Source of the DNA: Promethearchaeota archaeon
GTDB taxonomy: Archaea > Asgardarchaeota > Lokiarchaeia > Sigyniarchaeales > SOKP01
Direction: 5' to 3'
Assembly: GCA_019057865.1 (NCBI GenBank)
Contig: JAHLWP010000072.1
Coordinates: 1-10,709 of the forward strand
DNA: 10,709 nt
Part shown: positions 1-10,709 of the stretch, one piece after another
Numbering within the stretch: the stretch's first letter is position 1
Layout: the number at the start of each line of letters is the position of its first letter
Made by a program: the position numbers and the translations under genes
The notes under the pieces: model-generated
What the model was told of the DNA's origin: nothing
Database searches by the model: none
What the model saw: the letters and a program-made list of their open reading frames with translations, nothing else

Positions 1-98
1 CTCATATTATTTAGGAATTGAATTTCTAATTTAAATTAATCCTAGAAAAATTAAGTCTTTCAAGTCATGAGGGAGTACTATTGCACTATTGGTTATGT

Positions 99-431: not shown

Positions 432-2225
432 ATGAGAAGTTTATACATTTTTGGCGAAAATAAAATGAAGACAGAAATAAAAGCAACAGTAGGTTTGATT
501 TTTATAGGGATTATCTTAGTAGGATCGCCAATTATCAACACCAAATTTGATAAGTATCAATCTGAAAATTATGAAAAATTGGATATTAAAACTAGATACG
601 ACTTAAAAGGAGCGGGATCTTGGAAAGCTAATGGAACAGTTATATGTAATGCTAGTGATAGTCAAAATCTACCTAAGATTTGCAGTGATGGAACTGGGGG
701 AGCGATTATCACATGGCATGATAATAGAAACGGAGCTAATTTAGATGTTTACGCACAGATGATTGATTCAAACGGGAATGTAAATTGGACTACTAATGGC
801 GTAGCGATAGGTGCAGCAAGTGGCGATCAATCCTACCCTGAAATTTGCAGTGATGGAGAAGGAGGAGCGATAATCGTGTTCAATGATTATCGAGGGGGAG
901 CTACCTCAGATATATATGCTCAAAGGATTGATTCAAACGGAAATGTACAATGGATTCCTAATGGCGTTGCAATATGCACAGCTAGTTATTATCAACTTTT
1001 ACCTCAAATTTGCAGTGATGGAGAAGGAGGAGCGATAATCATATGGAACGATTTTAGAGGTGGAAGTTACTCAGATATTTATGCTCAAAGGATTGATTCA
1101 AACGGGAATGTACAATGGACTCCTAATGGCGTAGCGATTTGTATACAAAGTTATAATCAGCTTCAAACTAAAATTTGCAGTGACGGAGCTGGGGGTGCGG
1201 TTATCATGTGGAGGGATTATAGAAACGGAAATAATTTTGATATTTACGCTCAGAAGATTGATTCTAATGGAAATACACAATGGAATGCCAATGGTGTAGC
1301 AATATGTACAGCAAGTAGTGACCAATATTACCCTAAAATTTGCTCTGATGGGGCAGGAGGTGCGATTATTACGTGGTATGATAATGGTATTAGAGCCTTC
1401 TGGGATATTTATGCTCAAAGAATTGATTCAAACGGGAATGTACAATGGACTACAGATGGCGTAGCGATATGTACCGCAGAAAATGAACAACTTGTCTCTC
1501 AACTTTGCAATGATGGAGCAGGGGGAGCAATCATTACTTGGTATGATTATAGGAGTGGAATTTACTCAGATATTTATGCTCAAAGGATTAATTCAAATGG
1601 GAATGTGCAATGGGCTATGGATGGCGTTGCGATTTGTACAGCGGAAAATGAACAACTTGCCCCTCAAATTTGCAGTGATGGAGCAGGAGGAGCTATAATC
1701 ATATGGAATGATTTTAGAAGTGTATCTTATTCAGATATTTATGCCCAGCAGATTAACTCAACCGGGAATGTACAATGGACTGTCGATGGTATAGAGATAT
1801 GTACAGCAGATAATGAACAAATAAACCCTCAAATTTGTAGGGATGGACTTGGGTCTGCAATTATCACATGGGAAGATTATAGAAATGAATTGGATGTTGA
1901 TATTTACGCACAAATGATAATTGAATTCCCTGATGAAACACCTCCAAAAGTTTTTAATATTAATCCTGGTCTTATAATTATAGTTGTCTTAAGCATTCTT
2001 GGAGGAGCAGGAATTGCAGCTTCTGTTTATTTAATATACACAAAAAGAAAAGGAATTATTAGAGTAATTACGGGAGAAGGGAAGGAAATTCAAAAAATAC
2101 CAGTAAAACCGAAAATGACTGAAAAAGCACAGTTATTATTATCTTTCTGCCCATTCTGTGGGATTAAATTAAGGGTAATAGGAAAATATTGTACGAACTG
2201 TGGAAAGAAAATGATTCCTGAATGA
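432..2225 (+). CDS. Membrane-anchored surface repeat protein: signal/TM segment, 8 x 55-aa repeats (probable beta-propeller), C-terminal TM helix, cytoplasmic zinc ribbon
   Basis: 597-aa ORF; the true start may be the ATG at 465 (MKTEIK). N-terminal hydrophobic VGLIFIGIILVG. Repeat consensus WxxNGVAICxxxxxQxxPxICSDGxGGAIIxWxDxRxxxxxDIYAQRIDSNGNVQ. TM LIIIVVLSILGGAGIAASVYLIY (~1971-2039) followed by TKRK. CPFC-x10-CTNC at 2148-2201. Confidence 0.9.
   Translation: MRSLYIFGENKMKTEIKATVGLIFIGIILVGSPIINTKFDKYQSENYEKLDIKTRYDLKGAGSWKANGTVICNASDSQNLPKICSDGTGGAIITWHDNRNGANLDVYAQMIDSNGNVNWTTNGVAIGAASGDQSYPEICSDGEGGAIIVFNDYRGGATSDIYAQRIDSNGNVQWIPNGVAICTASYYQLLPQICSDGEGGAIIIWNDFRGGSYSDIYAQRIDSNGNVQWTPNGVAICIQSYNQLQTKICSDGAGGAVIMWRDYRNGNNFDIYAQKIDSNGNTQWNANGVAICTASSDQYYPKICSDGAGGAIITWYDNGIRAFWDIYAQRIDSNGNVQWTTDGVAICTAENEQLVSQLCNDGAGGAIITWYDYRSGIYSDIYAQRINSNGNVQWAMDGVAICTAENEQLAPQICSDGAGGAIIIWNDFRSVSYSDIYAQQINSTGNVQWTVDGIEICTADNEQINPQICRDGLGSAIITWEDYRNELDVDIYAQMIIEFPDETPPKVFNINPGLIIIVVLSILGGAGIAASVYLIYTKRKGIIRVITGEGKEIQKIPVKPKMTEKAQLLLSFCPFCGIKLRVIGKYCTNCGKKMIPE
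621..1919 (+). repeat. Intragenic tandem repeat, 8 units with an exact 165-bp period (unit starts 621, 786, 951, 1116, 1281, 1446, 1611, 1776)
   Basis: A TGG (Trp) codon occurs at every unit start and there are no indels between units; the last unit diverges after ~48 codons. Long shared nucleotide blocks, e.g. 841-875 is identical to 1006-1040 (35 nt). Confidence 0.95.
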
Positions 2226-2627: not shown

Positions 2628-2847
2628 ACTTATCACCTTCTTTTAATTATTTAAAATATTGGGTTTCAGTAGTGTATAAAAAATAGTAAATTGTGAATTT
2701 AATTTTTACTATCTAAAAAAAATTATGGTCATTCAAGTATTATTATAAAAAAGGTTATTTTCGATAAGATATTAGTATTCATATTAATACTATTTAAGAT
2801 CATAATTCTAGGGCATCTTAGAATAATTAAACACAACACCACTTATA

Positions 2848-3039
2848 ATGGAAATATTTAAAGAGATTAGGCAACGAGAGGAAGAGAATCCTATCCCCAT
2901 TCCTTATTGCGAAAACTGTGGAAAAAACATCGTGAATAGTAAATGGAATAAACACTATCACCATATCAATATATGCCAAGAACCAGTAAAGCGATTTTTC
3001 TGTTCCCGTCAATGTAAATTAAGTTGGATTTTTAGATAA
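2848..3039 (+). CDS. Small FCS/TRASH-like treble-clef zinc-finger protein, 63 aa
   Basis: YCENCGKNI...FFCSRQCK: CxxC followed by an FCSxxC motif. Confidence 0.75.
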   Translation: MEIFKEIRQREEENPIPIPYCENCGKNIVNSKWNKHYHHINICQEPVKRFFCSRQCKLSWIFR

Positions 3040-3110
3040 GGGGAGAGGACAAGGAATAAGGAATATAACCAAAAGAAATAAAAAGTAGTAAAACCTTAAG
3101 TTTCTTATTT

Positions 3111-3551
3111 CTATTTTTTAAATCCTTCAGCATCTAATCGCTCATTACACAACTCATCGCATCGTTCTATATAGGAATTGTTTCTACCGACAAAGAAAAA
3201 CTCCACTTTTTCATATTTCTCGCAGAGCCGATACACCTCGCTACAGAGTTTCGACAGGTGCGGCTTATTGATTTTCCATTTTTTATTGATTTGCTGTACG
3301 GCAAGGTTGCTGTCGGAGTACATTTGTAGGTGCCCCCTATGGAACTTTTCAGCCGTCTTTAGCGCGTTGATAATTGCTTGATATTCCGCAGTGTTGTTGG
3401 TCGCAGTTCGGATGTAATCGCATCCTTCATGGATAATCTCATCATTATGAACAAATAGGAAAGCACAGGCAGTCGGACCAGGATTACCACGAGCAGCGCC
3501 ATCGGTATAAATGTTAAGGATATCTCCTTTTTTAATTGTATTTTTACTCAT
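3111..3551 (-). CDS. rnhA: Ribonuclease HI (type 1 RNase H, archaeal/short type)
   Basis: Motifs IYTDGAARGNPGP, TNNTAEYQAII, YSDSNLAVQQI..KWKI and CDELCN. Acidic catalytic set D17, E56, D80, D132 is present. Confidence 0.93.
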   Translation of the reverse strand: MSKNTIKKGDILNIYTDGAARGNPGPTACAFLFVHNDEIIHEGCDYIRTATNNTAEYQAIINALKTAEKFHRGHLQMYSDSNLAVQQINKKWKINKPHLSKLCSEVYRLCEKYEKVEFFFVGRNNSYIERCDELCNERLDAEGFKK

Positions 3552-3612
3552 ATGAAAGATAAATCAATTTTTTAATTTAAATTTATAAACCTATAAAGAC
3601 TTATACAAAAGA

Positions 3613-3627
3613 TATCAGATTCTGATA
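3613..3627. promoter_or_regulatory. Perfect 7-1-7 palindrome TATCAGA-T-TCTGATA between divergent rnhA and ABC genes; candidate operator
   Basis: Inverted repeat read directly, ~60 bp upstream of the rnhA start and just beyond a TATA-like TTTATAAA (3582-3589). Function is inferred. Confidence 0.35.
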
Positions 3628-3903
3628 ATAGATTTTCTTACATTTATGGAAAAATCTTTATATATTATATTTATATATTTTCCAACTATCCATTCTTGAT
3701 TCCAATTCATTACTCATATGAATCAATAATTTTTTTTAGTTATTATAAATGCTGATTCTTTAACATAAATATCAACTTAATGTCAAATATATATTATATT
3801 TAAAAGTCCAGATTTTTTCTAATTTCTACATTAACTTTTTCCACTAATCTTTTATGATTTAAGAAATTCTTAATATCAAACGAACCATTAAAAATTTGCA
3901 TAT

Positions 3904-5679
3904 ATGAACTCAAAACAAAGGGCCTATAAGAGCTATCTAACTTGGCTCTTACATCACCTAATTAAACAGAAGTTTTTAATGATATTCGTGATTTTAGGAA
4001 TTATTCTCGTTACATTAACAAGGACTTTAATTCCTCTTATTCTAGGAGACATTATTGATAAAACTATTATGATTAGCGATATTAAAGAGATAATGCCGTT
4101 AATTCTCACAGTGCTTTTTCTTTATATCACTAATATAGTATTGGATTATGGCTCTATGATGGCAGGACATTTTTTAGGCTTGAAGACGGAACAAAATATG
4201 CGAACAGAATTTTTTGATGTAATCCAATCAAAGCCTTTAAAATACCATGATAGTGCTAGAACAGGTGATTTACAAGCACTTGCTACTAATGATCTACGAA
4301 TTGTAAACACTATGGTCTCTCACGGTGCTTTCTTTATTTATCCATTCATTCAGGTGGCGATAGTGGCTTATATATTATTTGGCGTTCTTGATTTAAGGCT
4401 AGCTTTATTTTTTTTTCCATTCCTCATTTTTTACATTTATTTTATTCTTTATTATCGAAAGAAACTTGCCCCTTTTGTTGCTGCACGCATGGAAAAGCAT
4501 TCAAAAATCGTGATTATACTTCAAGATAATATAAGTGGTACTGCAGTGATAAAGACCTTTACAACTGAAAAGTCAGAAAAGAAAAAATTTCTTTCAGCAG
4601 TACGTGCTTTTAGAGATAATTGGATTGGAGAAAATGAAGTTCAGTCCAAGTATTACCCACTTTTAACTCTTTATATTGCTATAAGTATACTTTTTCTTAT
4701 AAGTTGTAATTTTGTCTACTTTGATATGCTAACAATCGGTGAATTAGTTGCTGCGAATTTACTCTTAACGACTCTTGTTGATCCAACGAATTTAATCTTC
4801 TGGGCAACTAATGATATGATGAGTGGTTTTGCTGCATGTTCACGACTGTTTAAAGCACTATCCAAAGGTGAAAGTGAGAAAAGTAATAATTTAGTTAAGA
4901 GTTGGCCTAAGAATTTTAAAGGGAAAATAGAATTTAAAGATGTGTCTTTCTCTTATGAAGATAAAGGAAAAATAAGTATACCCGTTTTTAAAAAGCTTAA
5001 TTTCTCAATTGAACCGCAACAAACAATTGCTTTAGTCGGACCGACAGGATGCGGAAAAACTACTCTTGCTAAATTAATTTTATCTCTATATAAACCAAAA
5101 GAGGGTAAAATTCTCTTGGATAATGTAAACATACAAGATTATCCTCTTGAAGTATTAAGGAAACATGTAGGTTATATTGAACAGGATATTTATCTTTTTC
5201 CACGATCTATTAAAGAAAATATTGCATTTGGTAAACCTGATGCTGCAGAACAAGATATTATTAAAGTTGCTAAATTAGCACAAGTGGATGAGTTTGTACA
5301 AAACTTTCCTAACGGTTATGAAACCATAGTTGGTGAAAGAGGCACACGATTATCTGGAGGAGAAAGACAAAGAATTGCAATAGCTCGTGCTCTTTTAACA
5401 GAACCGGATATTGTAATTCTTGACGATTCAGTTTCAGCAGTAGATAGTGAAACCGAAGAAAAAATTGGACGTGCTATTGAAAATGTCTTAAAAAATAGAA
5501 CTACAATTATAATAACTCATCGTTTAAATACCATTAGGACTTCTGACAAGATTTTAGTCCTTAAAGATGGAACAATCACAGCAGAAGGTAACCATCAAGA
5601 GTTAATACAGAGATCAGAAGATTATAGGCGAATATATGGGAAACATCTTGAATTACCAGAAATTAAAATTGAGGATTAG
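3904..5679 (+). CDS. ABC exporter half-transporter (TMD+NBD), subunit A of a heterodimer (MdlA/TM287-like), non-canonical Walker B
   Basis: Multiple TM segments, Walker A GPTGCGKT, signature LSGGERQR, Walker B IVILDD (Asp replaces the catalytic Glu), H-loop ITHR. Confidence 0.95.
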   Translation: MNSKQRAYKSYLTWLLHHLIKQKFLMIFVILGIILVTLTRTLIPLILGDIIDKTIMISDIKEIMPLILTVLFLYITNIVLDYGSMMAGHFLGLKTEQNMRTEFFDVIQSKPLKYHDSARTGDLQALATNDLRIVNTMVSHGAFFIYPFIQVAIVAYILFGVLDLRLALFFFPFLIFYIYFILYYRKKLAPFVAARMEKHSKIVIILQDNISGTAVIKTFTTEKSEKKKFLSAVRAFRDNWIGENEVQSKYYPLLTLYIAISILFLISCNFVYFDMLTIGELVAANLLLTTLVDPTNLIFWATNDMMSGFAACSRLFKALSKGESEKSNNLVKSWPKNFKGKIEFKDVSFSYEDKGKISIPVFKKLNFSIEPQQTIALVGPTGCGKTTLAKLILSLYKPKEGKILLDNVNIQDYPLEVLRKHVGYIEQDIYLFPRSIKENIAFGKPDAAEQDIIKVAKLAQVDEFVQNFPNGYETIVGERGTRLSGGERQRIAIARALLTEPDIVILDDSVSAVDSETEEKIGRAIENVLKNRTTIIITHRLNTIRTSDKILVLKDGTITAEGNHQELIQRSEDYRRIYGKHLELPEIKIED

Positions 5680-5694
5680 TAAGGGGGTATTACT

Positions 5695-7494
5695 TTGGGA
5701 CTTTATTCTGGCTTGATTAAGCAGCAGAGAAAGCAGCATTATTCTGATCGAGAGTTATTCGTTCGATACACGAAAAGATTGGCTCCTTATAAAAGGAGTA
5801 TATTTTTAATTACTTTATTTATTCTCATCTCTACTATTGCAGAAATTACTAGTCCCTTAATAGTAGGATTTGGGGTTGATGAATTATCTTCTATAAACAG
5901 TGACTTTTTATTAATAATAATTCTTGCCTTGACTTACGTTTTTCTATCTGCCATTGATTGGTTAATGTTTTTTTTACGTAGAAGAGAATACGGAAATTTT
6001 GTCCCTCATTTCTTAGAAAATCTCCGAATGGATATTTATGATAAATTGCAAATGCAAGACATGACTTTTTTTGACAAGTATCAGAGTGGCGCTTTAAACA
6101 CGAGAGTTTCAAATGATGCTTTAGATTTTGGAGATACGACCCCTTTAATATCAGAGACAGCTGGTAATTTTCTCATTAGTATATTAACATTTGCTATTTT
6201 AGCATTCTTAAATTTAAATCTTGCCCTTATAGCTTTAATTGCTGTACCATTCGTATTTTTATTGATGATTTCTCTTAGAAAGCTAGCAAGAATAGTCAGT
6301 AGAGCTTATCGAAAGGCAATAGAGAATGTTAATAATGCAATGGTAGAATCCATAGAAGGTATTCATGTTTCTAAAAGTTATGGTCAAGAAGCAACAATCT
6401 CAAATCAATTTAACGAGATTAACAAGGATTATTTCAAATCAACTTTTAAATTGACAGCAGTAACACATCTATGGAGACATTTATTAAACATAATTGCATC
6501 AATTACCTTATTAGTGATTTTATATTTTGGTGGACAGCTTGTTATAGAAGATAATTTAACCACTGGAACAATTTTTATATTTATACTTTATCTCCAACGA
6601 TTTTTTAGACCGATAATGGTTCTCTCTACATTTTTTCCTCAACTTAGCTCTGGAATGGCTGCTTATGAACGTATTCTTGAAATACTTGATTCTGAACCAA
6701 ACGTAAAACAAAATGTTGGAGCAATAGAAGTAGGAGAATTGGAAGGAGAGATTTTTTTTGAAAATGTTAGCTTTTACTACAGAGATGATGAATGGGTTTT
6801 TAAAGAATTTAATCTTAGAGTAGGAAAAGGAGAAAAACTAGCGATTGTTGGACACACAGGAGCAGGAAAAACCTCATTAGTATCACTTTTAGCGCGTTTT
6901 TATGAATTTCAAGGAGGATCAATTAAAATCGATGGAATTGATATTAGAAATATAACGTTGGATTCATTTAGAAGAAATATTGGGATAGTTCAACAGGAAG
7001 TATTTTTATTTTCAGGTACGTTAGAAAAAAATATTCGTTATGGAAAACGCGACGCTTCTGAAGAAGAACTATGGAACGCGATTAGAACGGTTCATGCTGA
7101 AGAACTTATCAAATATTTACCCAAAGGTATAGAAACACGAGTAGGTGAAAGAGGAAAGGGATTATCTACAGGGCAAAAGCAAATCATTAGTTTTGCTCGA
7201 GCGATCTTGAGTAATCCAAAAATTCTTATCCTTGATGAAGCAACTTCAAGTGTAGATGCCTATACTGAGACAATAATTCAAGAAGCTCTTCAAGAATTAT
7301 TAACTAATCGTACATCAATAATAATTGCTCATAGGTTATCAACTGTTGTTAATGCGGATAGAATCATTGTAATGGATCATGGAAAAATCATTGAAGAAGG
7401 AACTCATGATTCTTTACTTGCCAAAGGTGGAAAATATGCTCTACTTTATAAGCAATATTTTGAGCATCAAAGTCTTGATTGGCACACGAGTTAA
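5695..7494 (+). CDS. ABC exporter half-transporter (TMD+NBD), subunit B of a heterodimer (MdlB/TM288-like)
   Basis: TTG start 15 bp after the subunit A stop, with a G-rich SD. Walker A GHTGAGKT, degenerate signature LSTGQ, Walker B ILILDE, H-loop IAHR. Confidence 0.95.
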   Translation: MGLYSGLIKQQRKQHYSDRELFVRYTKRLAPYKRSIFLITLFILISTIAEITSPLIVGFGVDELSSINSDFLLIIILALTYVFLSAIDWLMFFLRRREYGNFVPHFLENLRMDIYDKLQMQDMTFFDKYQSGALNTRVSNDALDFGDTTPLISETAGNFLISILTFAILAFLNLNLALIALIAVPFVFLLMISLRKLARIVSRAYRKAIENVNNAMVESIEGIHVSKSYGQEATISNQFNEINKDYFKSTFKLTAVTHLWRHLLNIIASITLLVILYFGGQLVIEDNLTTGTIFIFILYLQRFFRPIMVLSTFFPQLSSGMAAYERILEILDSEPNVKQNVGAIEVGELEGEIFFENVSFYYRDDEWVFKEFNLRVGKGEKLAIVGHTGAGKTSLVSLLARFYEFQGGSIKIDGIDIRNITLDSFRRNIGIVQQEVFLFSGTLEKNIRYGKRDASEEELWNAIRTVHAEELIKYLPKGIETRVGERGKGLSTGQKQIISFARAILSNPKILILDEATSSVDAYTETIIQEALQELLTNRTSIIIAHRLSTVVNADRIIVMDHGKIIEEGTHDSLLAKGGKYALLYKQYFEHQSLDWHTS

Positions 7495-7571
7495 AGCAAA
7501 TTAAAAATTAATTAATTATTATAATTTATTCCAAATTTAATATTTAATTAACTATTGATGCAAATTTTAAT

Positions 7572-7790
7572 CTATTTATAATAGAGGTGCGGCTTATCGA
7601 TTTTCCATTTTTTATTGATTTGCTGTACGGCTAGGTTGCTGTCGGAATACACTTGTAGGTGCCCCTTATGGAACATTTCAGCCGTCTTTAGCGCGTTGAT
7701 AATTGCTTGATAATCAGCGGTTTTTGATATAAGGTTAGAACCTTCAAGTTTTAAGGATTTTATAAATGAAATTTCTTTGTTTATTTTCAT
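7572..7790 (-). other. 72-aa chimeric ORF: unrelated N-terminus fused in frame to the rnhA middle fragment
   Basis: MKINKEISFIKSLKLEGSNLISK + TADYQAIINALKTAEMFHKGHLQVYSDSNLAVQQINKKWKIDKPHL + YYK*. Lacks the D17 and D132 equivalents and has E56 replaced by D. Expression unknown. Confidence 0.4.
7585..7712 (-). pseudogene. rnhA: Internal rnhA fragment (codons 57-99); direct repeat of 3256-3383
   Basis: Manual alignment: 122/128 identical, no gaps, offset 4329 bp. Weaker similarity continues to ~7724 (TADY vs TAEY). Confidence 0.95.
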
Positions 7791-7856
7791 AATTTTTATA
7801 TACTAGTTTGTATAATTTATTGCACGAACCAACTTTAATAAAAATAGGTGAAATTT

Positions 7857-9398
7857 ATGAAAAATACCAAAATGAAAATAATTTCATTTTCTATAGTTAT
7901 AATCTTAGTAATTTGTATTTTTATGACTCCTGCAGTTTCTTTTCCTTTAAAAAAAGGTAAAAGTGAAATAGAAGACTGGACTTTAGTTCATGATGGAAGA
8001 GGTGTAAAATCTTATCCTGAATTAAGAGAGTATGTTTGGGAAACTGAGAGACCACCCTATGGTCCTTATGATCGAATAGGGTTGCATAGAGTAGTAAAAG
8101 AAGGCATTAGACCACAAGGAGTTGTGTTTATTCTACCAGGAACATGGAGTACTGGTGAACAACTATGTTCAAATCCCCCCGAGGATTGGTGGACCGCAGA
8201 CGAGGATCACTCTTTTGCATTATTTTTGGCAAATAGAAATTTCGATGTTTATGCAATAGATTATAGAACTCACTTTGTGCCAATTAATTTTACTCCAGCT
8301 CAAATTACATTTATGGCAGAATGGGGTTGGGATGCCTGGATAGGTGATATAAAGAAATCTGTAGAATTAGCGAAAGAAGTCTCTGGAGTCAAAAAACTAT
8401 TTATTGCTGGTGATAGTTTCGGAGGTAGTGCTGCGATGAATTATGCCTCATTATATTGGCAAGAAGATTTAAAAGGAATATTATTAAGAGACGGTGGAAC
8501 TGGAGCAAAATATCCAGGTCTTGTGGATAATGAATATAATTTGCCAGCAATGATAGCTTGGATGATGGCAACAGGTAATTGGTACTGGGAAGTTGGGACT
8601 GCACCGGGATCAATTTTCATACTGAAATTTGCTGATAGATATCCTGATGCTCCTGCAATCAACCCCTATACAGGAGATCCTCTCGAACCTGAAATTAATC
8701 CTAATACTGGAGAGCCATGGACAAATATTGCTGAATGGGCGGCATTTATGATATATATGGCATGGGGACCTGGTGTTGTTAGTAATATCTATGGTGGTTA
8801 TGGAGATCCTAGTGTAATGATTCACATTGATGCTACATTTGATAGATATTGGCCTATGAGATTAAGGTTTGAAAGTGAAGCTATAAGTGATTGGGACAAC
8901 TGTCCATATGTTACATATGATTTTGACGATCATTATCATGAAATAGACGTTCCGTTGCTTGCTTTTACAAGTCAATTATTTGGGCTCAACTATTGGGGTC
9001 CTTTTATCCATTGGATTGCAAATCCTGATTTTAAAGGACACTATTTATGGGGGTATGGCCATTTAGATGTTTATTCAGGTGAATATTCGAAAGATGATGT
9101 AAGTCAGCCAACATATGATTGGCTTATTAATCATATAATGTTAGAAGGATACGGTAGAATCAAATTTGAAAATAAGTGGTATAAAGGGAAAGCTACGATT
9201 TTTATCAATGGAACTTTGATAGACTTTAAAATTAATGATGAACGCTTTTCATGGGATATAGTTGATCACTATTCTTATAGGCAACTTGAAATTTTTAAAG
9301 GTCTGAGTGATTTTGGTTTAATGAAAATACTTATTACTAAAATGGGAGTTGCAATAGCGATTGGACGTAAAGTCCACTTTATTGGATGCAAAATGTAA
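7857..9398 (+). CDS. Secreted/membrane-anchored alpha/beta-fold serine hydrolase (lipase/esterase-like) with a C-terminal beta-rich extension
   Basis: The ORF track start, GTG 7848, overlaps an AGGTGA SD, so ATG 7857 is likelier. Basic plus hydrophobic N-terminus, oxyanion-like LPGTW, DVYAIDYR, nucleophile elbow GDSFG (8409-8423), GYGHLD as the likely catalytic His. Confidence 0.88.
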   Translation: MKNTKMKIISFSIVIILVICIFMTPAVSFPLKKGKSEIEDWTLVHDGRGVKSYPELREYVWETERPPYGPYDRIGLHRVVKEGIRPQGVVFILPGTWSTGEQLCSNPPEDWWTADEDHSFALFLANRNFDVYAIDYRTHFVPINFTPAQITFMAEWGWDAWIGDIKKSVELAKEVSGVKKLFIAGDSFGGSAAMNYASLYWQEDLKGILLRDGGTGAKYPGLVDNEYNLPAMIAWMMATGNWYWEVGTAPGSIFILKFADRYPDAPAINPYTGDPLEPEINPNTGEPWTNIAEWAAFMIYMAWGPGVVSNIYGGYGDPSVMIHIDATFDRYWPMRLRFESEAISDWDNCPYVTYDFDDHYHEIDVPLLAFTSQLFGLNYWGPFIHWIANPDFKGHYLWGYGHLDVYSGEYSKDDVSQPTYDWLINHIMLEGYGRIKFENKWYKGKATIFINGTLIDFKINDERFSWDIVDHYSYRQLEIFKGLSDFGLMKILITKMGVAIAIGRKVHFIGCKM

Positions 9399-9426
9399 GA
9401 AACTTAAAAAACAAATTCATAATCAA

Positions 9427-9446
9427 TTTTTTTTATTTTTTATTTT
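9427..9446 (+). terminator. Oligo-T tract downstream of the hydrolase
   Basis: T8-A-T6-A-T4 located ~30 bp after the stop codon. Confidence 0.45.
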
Positions 9447-9493
9447 GTTAATTTCTAATTTAGTCAAATATTCACCACATAACATATTTGCTT

Positions 9494-9580
9494 TTAAAAT
9501 CCTTCCGCATCTAACCGTTCATTACATAATTTATCGCATCGTTTTATATAAGGATTACTTCTGCCGACATGGAAAAACTC
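9494..9580 (-). pseudogene. rnhA: 3'-terminal rnhA fragment (codons 117-144 plus stop); not in ORF track
   Basis: Translates EFFHVGRSNPYIKRCDKLCNERLDAEGF*, versus intact EFFFVGRNNSYIERCDELCNERLDAEGFKK*. 9497-9580 vs 3120-3203 is 70/84 nt identical with no gaps. An in-frame TGA lies immediately upstream. Confidence 0.93.
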
Positions 9581-9581
9581 T

Positions 9582-9781
9582 CACCAGTTCATTTATTATC
9601 TTATTGTGATTAGGAGAGTGTGATTTCTTTTCTAGATCTCTAAAAAGAATGTCTTCTTCTTTGCCATGATGAGTTCTATCAGCGTACATTCTGATGAAAT
9701 CAACAACAATATCAATAAAAAGAGGATTTGCTTTATTGTATTTTTTTATTTTTTCAATTTCTTTTTTAATACTAGCATACG
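9582..9781 (-). pseudogene. Hemerythrin (HHE cation-binding) domain gene fragment; not in ORF track
   Basis: Minus-strand frame reads IKKEIEKIKKYNKANPLFIDIVVDFIRMYADRTHHGKEEDILFRDLEKKSHSPNHNKIINELV, containing the hemerythrin HHxxEExxLF motif. It lacks the N-terminal His helix and breaks off before the expected downstream His ligands. Family recognised from memory, not from a search. Confidence 0.8.
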
Positions 9782-9961
9782 ATTATTGCATACATTATCA
9801 TACCATTTCTTATCTTTACGAAGTTCCTTAATAATATTCATACACATAAATTCCTTGTAATCACTGTATTTCTCTGGTAATTCCATCTCCAATAATGGCA
9901 TTCTTTTTATAACCTTTCTTTTTGGTCTATCCTTTTCACATACGCTACATTTTACTTCCAT
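9746..9961 (-). CDS. Small basic Cys-rich hypothetical protein, 71 aa (CxxC...C...C), possibly Zn-binding
   Basis: AGGTGA SD ~5 nt upstream of ATG 9961; CSVC, C40 and C58. The 3' end overlaps the hemerythrin remnant. Confidence 0.6.
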   Translation of the reverse strand: MEVKCSVCEKDRPKRKVIKRMPLLEMELPEKYSDYKEFMCMNIIKELRKDKKWYDNVCNNRMLVLKKKLKK

Positions 9962-10419
9962 TTTTTCACCTTTTTTTAAAATATTCTAACGTCCATTCTG
10001 TATTAGGACACGCTTTTCTTAACACGAATTTCAAATTATTAATAAACATTTTACAGTAATTAAAAAAAAAGGTAAATACAAACATTTAAACTTTTTAGTT
10101 AAGAATTATTTTTAGATAAAATCTCTTATATTTATTTAGAAATATTCGAAAAAAAAAGTAGCCTAAGAAAGTATAATAAACATAATATAACACATAGGAA
10201 AAAAGCCCTATCTCCCTAAAATTTTAAACTCTTTCACTTTTTTCTCTTAAAATACCTCAATTTAACCCTATACACTAAAAATAACCAAGATATTTTCTAA
10301 CAGAATATTGAAGTGTATTATTCATAATACCAAGGTTTATTAAATTTAAAAATATATCTTACATGCTTGAACAGAGATATTTCAAAGTTTCAAGTATAAA
10401 ATTAAAATTTGGTGAAAGT

Positions 10420-10560
10420 ATGTCTAATAGAAATTATGGCAATAGAACGATGCACAAAGCCACATGTGCCGACTGTGGAAACGAGTGCGAAGTTCCATTT
10501 AAGCCTACGGAAGGCAGACCTGTTTATTGTCGAGAGTGTTATAAAAAGCATAGAAGATAA
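10420..10560 (+). CDS. CxxC-x17-CxxC domain small zinc-binding protein, 46 aa
   Basis: MSNRNYGNRTMHKATCADCGNECEVPFKPTEGRPVYCRECYKKHRR matches the well-known archaeal family motif MHxxxCxxCGxxCEVPFxPxxxRPVYCxxC. A GGTGA SD at 10411-10415 favours ATG 10420 over 10363. Confidence 0.9.
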   Translation: MSNRNYGNRTMHKATCADCGNECEVPFKPTEGRPVYCRECYKKHRR

Positions 10561-10603: not shown

Positions 10604-10630
10604 TTTTCTAGCTTATCGAGTAATGATTTA

Positions 10631-10653
10631 TTTTTTTTTTTTTTTTTTTTTTT
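10631..10653 (+). repeat. T23 homopolymer
   Basis: 23 consecutive T; could be a terminator tract, or its length may be a sequencing/assembly artefact. Confidence 0.7.
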
Positions 10654-10709
10654 AAGGCCCTAGGTCTATAAAAATAAACCTACACAAAATAATTAAAGAA
10701 CCCGTTTCA

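Follow-up and report, generated by a model that had tools for sequence, protein, structure and literature searches.

The routes by which Asgard archaea acquire and reshuffle accessory genes are poorly understood. The locus described here raises a question of this kind: why does the sequence of one small gene, rnhA, recur between blocks of unrelated genes? The analysed stretch of DNA (the window, 10,709 nt) is the entire contig C20 of a Promethearchaeota archaeon. An initial annotation had described three rnhA sequences in it, all on the minus strand, and had proposed that foreign genes were captured at this locus by homology to rnhA. The three sequences were confirmed, at nearly the coordinates given there.

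The intact copy (3111..3551, minus strand) is a type-1 RNase H gene (rnhA-like, 146 aa), recognised from the ORF list, by Pfam and by a PDB match. Its product scores 57 bits with PF13456 (RVT_3; cut-off 21.6) and 54.1 bits with PF00075 (RNase_H; cut-off 25.8), and its best solved relative is the RNase HI of Halobacterium (PDB 4e19, also 4nyn; E 5.5e-19). The motif columns TDGA, AEYQ, SDS and RCDEL align with the Halobacterium enzyme 4e19, and the same four acidic columns (D, E, D, D), which we take to hold the catalytic residues, are kept across the full rnhA copies. By the family thresholds and the four acidic residues, the product is, judging from its sequence, a member of the RNase HI family. 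The dN/dS values of the intact gene against the other full copies are 0.07-0.26; the copies are under purifying selection, which keeps the gene functional. They are mosaics of two allele types and are 83-91% identical within and between the genomes G000, G012 and G056. About 35 nt located 5' of the start codon (3552..3586, minus strand), probably the promoter, are common to the other full copies. Indeed, the window segment 3106-3586 matches positions 496-16 of contig C6 at 87%, and genus-wide the matches of full copies begin at the same point (query 66-68). The repeated unit consists of the rnhA ORF with about 35 nt upstream and 5-8 nt downstream, and it encodes RNase HI only.

The second sequence is an internal fragment (7585..7724, minus strand) comprising gene nt 157-296, which was detected as a self-match and as a genome match. 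It aligns ungapped with 3256-3395 over 140 nt (93% identity; E 2.7e-54 in a search of the 4.26-Mb genome), lacks the regions of the first and the last presumed catalytic Asp, and forms with 3256-3395 a pair of direct repeats flanking two ABC transporter genes. Fused to the fragment is a leader not derived from rnhA (7725..7790, minus strand), and together they make up a 72-aa ORF (7572-7790). The 5' junction of the fragment at nt 157 is common to the relative G056 (L037 14699), where the fragment reaches nt 354. Leader and junction occur twice in G056, once beside its fragment and once as an 81-nt direct repeat across a hydrolase gene; the rnhA-derived direct repeats that flank this gene there measure 81 nt at 82.7% and 40 nt at 95% identity. 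The G056 copy is too decayed for a comparison testing whether the internal fragment is chimeric. The third sequence is a 3' fragment (9484..9592, minus strand; approximately nt 337-441 plus 8 nt past the stop), and its allele is nearer to the copy on contig C6. It matches the local copy at 83% over 89 nt (9492-9580 versus 3115-3203; E 1.5e-19), while the match of 9484-9592 to the C6 copy is longer and better (89.9% over 109 nt).

Splitting of one rnhA gene by an insertion was considered and rejected: the pieces do not abut, they stand in the wrong order and they belong to different alleles. As the initial annotation had pointed out, the two fragments cover separate parts of the gene, and in the reading direction the 3' piece precedes the other. 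Its further conclusion that at least two events are needed also stands, since the 3' fragment is nearer to the C6 copy (89.5%, against 79% to the local copy) and the internal fragment matches the local copy at 92.9%. No clear microhomology was seen at 7584/7585 when the junctions, a minority of them with known parental sequences, were read.

The largest cargo block (3688..7583, plus strand) contains an ABC exporter pair with its flanks (3904-5679 and 5695-7494; ABC_membrane and ABC_tran Pfam domains in both genes). It is followed by a gene for a 516-aa protein (7848..9398, plus strand) with a weak alpha/beta-hydrolase match (Hydrolase_4, 24.2 bits, under the 27-bit cut-off). In G056 the DNA of the hydrolase gene is 88% identical and is likewise accompanied by the internal rnhA fragment; in G012, the closest relative, the gene was not detected. 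On the other side, downstream of the intact rnhA, lies a small Zn-ribbon gene module (2738..3093, plus strand; ORF 2848-3039; DUF7576, 23.9 bits, under the 27-bit cut-off). In relatives this module is located upstream of an rnhA 3' fragment, and it abuts nt 266 in G012, G056, G050 and G018. The plus-strand genes converge on the three rnhA pieces with gaps of 71, 90 and 93 nt (stops at 3039, 7494 and 9398), in agreement with the 70-95 bp noted earlier. Convergence did not hold up as a rule: the downstream neighbours of rnhA were convergent in 33 cases, co-directional in 40, a contig end in 26 and far away in three.

Joined directly to the 3' fragment is a truncated piece of a hemerythrin-like gene (9583..9770, minus strand), assigned to its family by motif in the translation. 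This stretch has 82-88% matches in many genomes of the genus, inside an ORF of 178-185 aa beside a homologue of orf71. The conserved island flank (9746..10560) comprises orf71 (9746-9961, minus strand) and a treble-clef zinc-finger gene (10363-10560, plus strand; zf_Tbcl_2, E 1.2e-20). This pair is found with 82-98% protein identity in many relatives and is followed there by an rnhA remnant and/or a Zn-ribbon gene.

The array extends beyond the window. Overlaps of 55 nt at its ends join the contig to two others with two more rnhA copies in the same orientation. Window positions 1..55 are an exact 55-mer common to the start of C6, and bases 1-5 correspond to the start codon of another intact rnhA on C6, again in the same orientation; the other end of C6 and the end of C42 also have one 55-mer in common. 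These scaffold joins each depend on one shared 55-mer, and contamination of the MAG is 5.15%; the independent support for the window assembly comes from relatives and metagenome contigs. Nine of the 23 listed sequencing runs contain at least half of the sampled words, and two contain 0.97 of them. Read in the direction of rnhA, the order is 3' fragment, hydrolase, internal fragment, ABC pair, intact rnhA, Zn-ribbon gene, intact rnhA. The genome harbours two intact rnhA genes, one copy without a start and four fragments; five of these seven pieces lie within approximately 35 kb in one orientation. The remaining two are 3' fragments elsewhere, on contigs C56 and C59. Scatter of fragments with no link to cargo had been named as an observation speaking against capture at rnhA, and in this part the prediction is weakened. 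Two rnhA fragments sit among unrelated defence or toxin-antitoxin genes.

Is this arrangement peculiar to one genome? Matches to rnhA DNA were found in 37 of 54 genomes of the genus, and two or more pieces were present at 11 of 107 deduplicated loci from the genus and from metagenome contigs. Neighbouring pieces had the same orientation in 18 of 19 pairs, a count that overstates the number of events because G000, G012 and G056 contribute orthologous, and hence non-independent, arrays. The intact gene was followed by a 3' fragment five times, and the reverse order was seen once. The layout of an intact gene, cargo and a displaced 3' fragment was found with at least six different cargos: an FMN reductase and a 628-aa protein (both on C68 of G012), an ABC-2 pair (L059/L144), a 979-aa protein (L132), a 149-aa protein (L137) and two small ORFs (L158). 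Direct repeats of the rnhA end flank the insert at L051, L059/L144, L132, L137 and L158. Thus, the claim that rnhA remnants bound variable cargo was borne out, since they bracket other cargo in other genomes, as homology-anchored insertion predicts. In G018 and G067, short 5' stubs of rnhA (about 35 nt) precede full copies by 1.6-3 kb. They were set aside as evidence, being too short, AT-rich and represented by two independent cases only.

The locus also varies between near-identical populations, as had been expected for relatives. Three independent metagenome contigs carry other cargo or none at the same junctions. L184 is 98.99% identical over 4054 nt, including the ABC pair and up to nt 147 of rnhA, and continues with other cargo and another rnhA. 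In L117 the intact rnhA and the Zn-ribbon gene stand beside the hemerythrin piece, with neither hydrolase nor ABC pair, and in L176 the Zn-ribbon module is missing. This filled/empty variation was seen at the contig level only, and among the contigs compared there was no intermediate and no pair of empty and filled sites with exact junctions. The ABC block is 96.5% identical to C70 of G056, against 79-90% for the backbone, and it has no close match in the closest relative G012; it is a foreign insert that was exchanged recently. The tract of high identity ends on both sides before rnhA, and none running into rnhA was seen. The FMN reductase is 97.8% identical to its counterpart in G056.

Taken together, we lean towards the view that the rnhA pieces are scars of repeated homology-anchored insertions with later deletions, and not one split gene or the sites of a dedicated recombinase. 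Directly observed are repeats that all point one way, cargo that differs from case to case, an ABC pair that was exchanged recently and the absence of an integrase nearby; from these we infer the anchoring step and the illegitimate joins. The setting is a variable island of this Asgard genus in which selection maintains a small accessory RNase HI gene in working order. According to the model, DNA from related lineages would arrive bearing an rnhA copy beside other genes, the incoming rnhA would pair with the resident one as an anchor, and the non-homologous end would be joined illegitimately inside or beside the resident gene. The product would be an intact hybrid rnhA, then new cargo and, pointing the same way, the displaced end of the former gene, and single-crossover integration of a circular piece would give an identical product. 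Repeated rounds, unequal crossing-over between the direct repeats and later deletions could then lead to the order in the window.

The features expected of a homologous anchor, similar rnhA copies and cargo directly beside rnhA pieces, were found. Most fragment 5' ends lie beyond nt 235, as expected if the 5' part must act as the anchor. Against simple insertion, the fragments in the window are located upstream of intact copies, which needs a further copy past the contig end or a rearrangement. An array built by insertions alone was not upheld: the order also needs deletions, for example one truncating the hemerythrin-like gene. The proposal of anchored capture thus survives in part, with separate events, the lack of an integrase and variable cargo in its favour, and with scattered fragments, islands free of rnhA, the convergence counts and the need for deletions against it.

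Foremost among the alternatives, the island might rearrange by duplication and illegitimate deletion whatever its content, so that rnhA would be a passenger and its pieces pseudogene debris with no causal role. Other island genes are paralogous or fragmented too (three FMN reductases, two MBL/beta-CASP genes, two Zn-ribbon paralogues and the hemerythrin piece), the genome has other fragment families, and gene order is shuffled among G000, G056 and G063 at junctions without rnhA. Moreover, the islands of G005, G044, G041 and G063 are equally variable without rnhA. What makes a mere passenger rather unlikely in our opinion is that tandem duplication predicts duplicated cargo, whereas the fragments here separate genes that are not related to each other, and that random breakage would not time after time leave the displaced 3' end of a gene behind its intact form. 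The near-uniform orientation is unexpected as well. Further, among the 212 repeat families of the genome rnhA shares the fourth rank by number of members; the three families outnumbering it reach 1.6-2.4 kb (unannotated).

Alternatively, the fragments could be old attachment-site repeats left by decayed site-specific integrations into the 3' part of rnhA, by integrase elements or by a recombinase acting in trans. An intact gene, an insert and a displaced 3' end in direct orientation are the classic signature of such events, and the last 50-60 nt of rnhA are common to all 3' fragments. Nevertheless, no recombinase was detected nearby, which agrees with the initial annotation. None of the 10 window ORFs scanned with Pfam has a recombinase domain (the 20 others are mostly short frames within longer genes), and none was found among 40 neighbouring ORFs scanned in the same way, the scans covering about half of the scaffold ORFs. 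Tyrosine recombinase matches (PF00589, the type covered by the family-level search, with serine recombinases and DDE transposases outside it) were located on C87, C82, C79 and C27 only, and none on the five rnhA contigs. The 21 commonest neighbour families, judged by eye and not by Pfam, include no integrase. The inserts (0.4-3.3 kb) are mostly too small to have carried one.

The breakpoints also speak against a fixed site. The fragments are 50 to 430 nt long, and their 5' ends vary from nt 13 to about nt 390 (nt 13, 111, 235, 256, 266, 293-296, 316 and 337); no constant crossover core or fixed repeat boundary was found among them. Partial clusters exist at nt 256-266 and, in four contexts, at nt 293-296, and such recurrence would suit a preferred site. 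Nt 266 was dismissed as a site-specific boundary, as it is mostly one inherited junction with the region upstream of the Zn-ribbon gene, common to G012, G056, G050 and G018. A recombination-prone hairpin at nt 293-296 was likewise rejected: a stem is predicted there (z -0.93), and 32 of 200 shuffled sequences fold equally well. The last 100 nt of six copies and fragments contain no attC-like structure (z -1.5 to +1.6). Carriage of rnhA by viruses was dropped, as no relative was found among viral contigs. Altogether, we regard site-specific integration as improbable.

It is still harder to believe that strains or species assembled together were fused at rnhA repeats into a chimeric contig. Such an artefact would fit the contamination of the MAG and the fact that in many assemblies rnhA terminates a contig or lies on a short one. 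Furthermore, the junctions 7584/7585 and 9580/9586 are present in this assembly alone, and an exact 26-nt search for the former in metagenome contigs returned nothing. However, the longest exact match among the rnhA pieces in the window is 27 nt, below the 55-nt overlaps, the passage from the ABC pair into the intact rnhA is confirmed by the independent contig L184, the hydrolase/internal-fragment junction is common to G056, and arrays recur in unrelated assemblies. Least credible of all is the origin of the fragments as 5'-truncated copies made by reverse transcription of rnhA mRNA, which the Pfam name RVT_3 and the common 3' end and variable 5' ends of the 3' fragments could suggest, since full copies include the approximately 35 nt upstream of the start where the promoter would lie, internal and 5' fragments exist too, the copies form local same-strand arrays and are not dispersed, and no reverse transcriptase was found in the 40 ORFs scanned.

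How do the rnhA arrays, which we prefer to explain by homology-anchored insertion, relate to known systems? In tandem genomic islands at tRNA and tmRNA genes, displaced 3' gene fragments are attachment-site repeats. Like the rnhA arrays, these islands show an intact target, an insert and a displaced 3' end in direct orientation, and successive inserts create arrays; they need an integrase and a fixed crossover core, whereas for rnhA neither an integrase nor a constant boundary was found. Work on such islands is cited in PMC8813620 as its reference 34. Translocatable units and pseudo-compound arrays of IS26 have their own transposase and inverted ends. They resemble the present case in that direct copies of one short gene separate cargo and new units join an existing copy. 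In contrast to IS26, the rnhA repeat is a true RNase HI gene without inverted ends; no inverted repeat is listed at the ends of the unit, and it encodes no transposase. Integron cassette arrays are similar in that small cargo units stand in a row at one platform, but the rnhA arrays have no IntI, no attC-like hairpin and mixed cargo orientation.

The best reading is that the rnhA arrays are a variant of the "C-terminal displacement" of Rhs and T6SS loci. For Rhs and for the orphan immunity arrays of the Vibrio cholerae T6SS, homology-facilitated illegitimate recombination was proposed (PMC5361080). As described there, the conserved part of a resident gene is the anchor without a dedicated recombinase, incoming DNA adds a new gene end and extra genes, and old 3' ends are pushed downstream and accumulate in direct orientation, all as in the rnhA arrays. 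The two differ in what arrives. In the toxin loci the new 3' end codes for another toxin, and the gene added with it is the immunity partner of that toxin (PMC5361080), while the rnhA arrays receive an ordinary rnhA allele as the 3' end, together with unrelated genes (transporters, a hydrolase, reductases). Moreover, the rnhA arrays occur in an Asgard archaeon, and their anchor measures only 441 nt. In tandem paralogue clusters, according to PMC2568036, the unit that evolves reaches from the 3' end of one gene across the spacer to the 5' end of the next; recombination within repeated genes creates units not matching ORFs, as it may with rnhA, although that case is a tandem paralogue family and the rnhA arrays have unrelated cargo between the repeats. 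The published mobile elements examined rely on integrases, transposases or tRNA sites, and no report of rnhA as an insertion anchor in archaea was found in the literature searched, whose supplements could hold such data.

In summary, across many species and sediment populations foreign genes appear to have landed repeatedly at a short gene under selection that has no recombinase of its own close by. Based on these observations, one may speculate, tentatively, that a 441-nt RNase HI gene serves as a portable homology handle and thereby as a recombinase-free platform for gene capture and exchange between species of this Asgard genus. If this is true, any rnhA copy could gain, lose or transmit adjoining cargo (transporters, hydrolases, reductases and defence genes) via the host recombination machinery, and the locus would be equivalent in function to integrons or IS26 arrays, with an ordinary housekeeping-type gene at its core. 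This would be a cheap route of gene flow relying solely on host recombination, and it would account for assemblies breaking at rnhA. Displaced rnhA ends would then be a marker of recently gained genes in these genomes, and the end-displacement model of bacterial toxin loci would extend to archaea and to non-toxin cargo.

The window corresponds to the whole of contig C20, which is AT-rich (G+C approximately 30%) and belongs to a 4.26-Mb assembly of 87 contigs. Its ORF at 3111-3551 on the minus strand encodes a genuine type-1 RNase H of 146 aa. The Pfam models RNase_H and RVT_3 each exceed the cut-off, and the best solved relatives are the Halobacterium RNase HI (4e19, E 5.5e-19), the metagenomic RNase H1 3u3g and the RNase H domain of Rv2228c. 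The initial annotation had placed two fragments of this rnhA gene beside the intact one, and by self-comparison and genome comparison both are real. The internal fragment (7585-7724, minus strand) corresponds to nt 157-296 of the 441-nt gene with 93% identity (E 2.7e-54), and the 3' fragment (9492-9580, minus strand) to the 3' end of the local copy with 83% identity (E 1.5e-19), while its match to the rnhA copy on contig C6 of the same genome is longer (9484-9592, 89.9%). The ORF map also showed that the order of the pieces and their spacing to the convergent genes had been described correctly. The 3' fragment is directly joined with a hemerythrin-like gene that is truncated (9583-9770, minus strand). 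The internal fragment is fused to a 63-nt foreign leader, resulting in an ORF of 72 aa (7572-7790, minus strand). This ORF has a start and a stop and lacks the regions of the first and the last catalytic Asp; it is probably non-functional, since its counterpart in the relative genome G056 is decayed (57% protein identity).

A whole-genome search revealed an intact rnhA copy on C6 (51-488, 89%) and a copy on C42 (55850-56277, 89%), in which the first 12 nt are replaced. The frame of the latter (55850-56290) is open from residue 5 through the stop, but, due to the replacement, no start codon (ATG, GTG or TTG) follows the stop codon located upstream, and thus this copy would be either dead or initiated at an unusual codon. 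In addition, 3' fragments were found on C56 (from nt 295, containing an in-frame stop) and C59 (from nt 266). Together with the copies in relatives described below, they confirm and extend the earlier observation that rnhA is repeated between gene units. The C42 copy is neighboured by DNA methylase, radical-SAM and HEPN/NYN genes, and the C56 and C59 fragments follow an AAA_15/AAA_21 ATPase pair and a nucleotidyltransferase-HepT pair, respectively. Two genes from the C6 copy lies a gene for a Ras-family small GTPase (1391-1933 of this locus, L001; Pfam Ras, E 3.6e-46), and related GTPase genes are found near rnhA in five loci. In addition to the rnhA ORF, the repeated unit includes approximately 35 nt before and 5-8 nt after it. 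Since the differences between the full copies are mostly silent (dN/dS 0.07-0.26), these copies are, on the evidence of their substitutions, maintained by selection.

The window and C6 begin with 55 nt that are reverse complements of each other, and window bases 1-5 correspond to the start codon of the rnhA gene on C6. The terminal 55 nt of C6 are related to an end of C42 in the same manner. Joined by these single 55-mer links, the three contigs carry three full-length rnhA copies and two fragments within approximately 35 kb, all on one strand. At the right end of the window, close to which more than 20 consecutive T residues occur (10623-10655), no 55-mer is shared with any other contig. A further rnhA copy may lie just off this end, because relatives carry an rnhA remnant just beyond the treble-clef gene, approximately 110 nt past the corresponding point.

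Three independent metagenome contigs of the same population differ from the window at these junctions. The first, L184, matches the window from 7457 down to 3405 (98.99% over 4054 nt) and, at the level of sequence, confirms the assembly from the ABC exporter pair into the intact rnhA. The match ends at rnhA nt 147 and is followed by a gene for a 432-aa protein and then by another rnhA 5' part. The 432-aa protein is a homologue of the 597-aa repeat protein of the window (432-2225, plus strand). The latter consists of an N-terminal hydrophobic stretch and seven tandem repeats of 165 nt (55 aa; 63-72% identity), matches no Pfam family above the cut-off, and has paralogous repeat genes on contigs C3 and C17. 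In the second contig, L117, the end of the small flank gene orf71 is present together with a hemerythrin piece whose truncation differs, a gene for a 166-aa protein, an rnhA gene that is intact and 92% identical to the window copy, and the Zn-ribbon gene; both the hydrolase gene and the ABC pair are absent. In L176, an rnhA 3' end directly abuts the sequence corresponding to window 2726-2247 (97%), and the Zn-ribbon module is missing. An exact search for one of the two junctions known from this assembly alone gave no match.

Judged by identity to the relatives, movement of the cargo is recent. Between the window genome and G056, identity is 96.5% for the ABC block (3688-7583), intergenic DNA included, and 97.8% for one FMN reductase gene, against 79-90% for the backbone (two 15-kb samples). 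The same backbone samples are 88-95% identical to G012. In this closer relative, the genome of which is 99% complete, we found only a 273-nt stretch at 70% when searching for the ABC genes, and no hydrolase gene. In relatives, the locus is a variable island. One flank consists of the C6-type genes (MBL-fold, MEDS and FMN reductase), the other of the hemerythrin-like gene, orf71 and the treble-clef zinc-finger gene. The content between the flanks differs among the relatives and amounts to 4.5 to 12 kb. Most window genes are present in G056, in changed order and with four rnhA pieces. The internal fragment there has the nt 157 junction and the hydrolase neighbour as in the window, but extends to nt 354; the hydrolase gene lies between two direct repeats derived from this fragment (81 nt at 82.7% and 40 nt at 95%). 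After the ABC pair, G056 has another rnhA fragment (nt 266-345), and after this the Zn-ribbon gene. The Zn-ribbon module is located downstream of intact rnhA in the window and upstream of an rnhA 3' fragment beginning at nt 266 in four relatives (G012, G056, G050 and G018). These placements would look like the expected halves of an arrangement "intact, Zn-ribbon, 3' fragment".

In the genus, rnhA DNA matches are present in 37 of 54 genomes, many of them fragments, and a protein-level match in 16 of 41 relatives. At 68% protein identity or above, rnhA was found in Asgard MAGs only; the next relatives are bacterial (approximately 40% or lower), and none was found on viral contigs. Among 107 loci (117 pooled, near-duplicates dropped), 11 contain at least two separate rnhA pieces, a number which exceeds that of independent events, since rnhA matches were the means of gathering the loci and the arrays are in part orthologous. 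Neighbouring pieces are co-oriented in 18 of 19 cases, the sole exception being a 21-residue match (E 0.003). The order intact rnhA then 3' fragment occurs five times and the reverse once. The cargo between the intact gene and the displaced 3' fragment is an FMN reductase followed by a 628-aa protein in G012 (contig C68), an ABC-2 ATPase with permease in L059/L144, a 979-aa protein in L132, a 149-aa protein in L137 and two small ORFs in L158. An ORF of approximately 300 aa, by eye resembling a luciferase-like oxidoreductase (L018 3262-4352, on G012 contig C18; also L024 and L031), stops precisely at the point from which an rnhA 3' fragment, comprising the gene from about residue 82, extends. 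This junction is retained in three species (G012, G018 and G001), and the scar is therefore older than their split. Further, AT-rich stubs of approximately 35 nt that match the rnhA start region (L021 4207-4238, L022 3630-3664, L050 4816-4852) are located on the same strand 1.6-3 kb upstream of full copies in G018 and G067 (only two independent cases).

Tyrosine recombinase matches exist in the genome on C87, C82, C79 and C27, and none on the rnhA-bearing contigs C20, C6, C42, C56 and C59; a scan of 40 neighbouring ORFs revealed no recombinase or transposase domain. The fragment boundaries vary (nt 13, 111, 235, 256, 266, 293-296, 316, 337 and others), most lying beyond nt 235, and nt 293-296 was found in four contexts. 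Folding at nt 293-296 and at the rnhA 3' end was no better than in shuffled controls.

Homology-facilitated illegitimate recombination with rnhA as the anchor most likely explains the pattern, because the junctions are variable, the cargo is foreign, no integrase was found nearby, and the product is recurrent, with an intact gene separated by unrelated cargo from a co-oriented displaced end. One end of the incoming DNA would pair with the resident rnhA, while the other would be joined illegitimately a short distance away. Alternatively, single-crossover integration of a circular piece carrying part of rnhA would give the identical product. If, as work in bacteria indicates, the anchor must measure at least a hundred bases, the shortness of the displaced 3' ends would follow. 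The window fits this model: a resident copy lacking its 5' part (leader plus nt 157-441, the form present in G056) could have received DNA with the ABC pair and an rnhA 5' part with its promoter, so that nt 157-296 remained on one side and a hybrid, intact rnhA lay on the other. The intact copy differs from all other copies from approximately nt 303, and looks mosaic. A later deletion would best account for the junction of the 3' fragment with the hemerythrin piece; the corresponding position in G056 is still occupied by a full-length hemerythrin-like ORF together with an FMN reductase gene and an rnhA piece (nt 315-380). Since the window fragments are located upstream of intact copies, an extra copy past the right contig end, or a rearrangement, would be required.

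On the other hand, rnhA could be purely passive, a gene duplicated many times and carried along in an island that is itself unstable, a reading we consider less likely. The islands of G005, G044, G041 and G063 lack rnhA and vary nevertheless, so island variability is independent of rnhA. The proposal of rnhA-anchored cargo insertion is supported in part: the foreign cargo and the lack of a nearby integrase speak for it, the variable islands without rnhA against it. In the genome self-comparison, rnhA is joint fourth by member number among 212 repeat families. The three families which outnumber it have up to 24 members, the longest of 1.6-2.4 kb, largely at contig ends. Of a fifth family (8 members, up to 2 kb), one member (C56 3902-5501) is located at a distance of 2.4 kb from the rnhA fragment of C56; the 409-aa ORF of this member has no Pfam match.

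The closest published model we found for homology-anchored insertion at rnhA is that for the T6SS immunity arrays of Vibrio cholerae and Rhs C-terminal displacement (PMC5361080). Our literature searches found no report of an RNase H gene as such an anchor. The arrays described here would thus be the first case we could find of end displacement by homology-anchored insertion with an RNase H anchor, unrelated cargo and an archaeal host.
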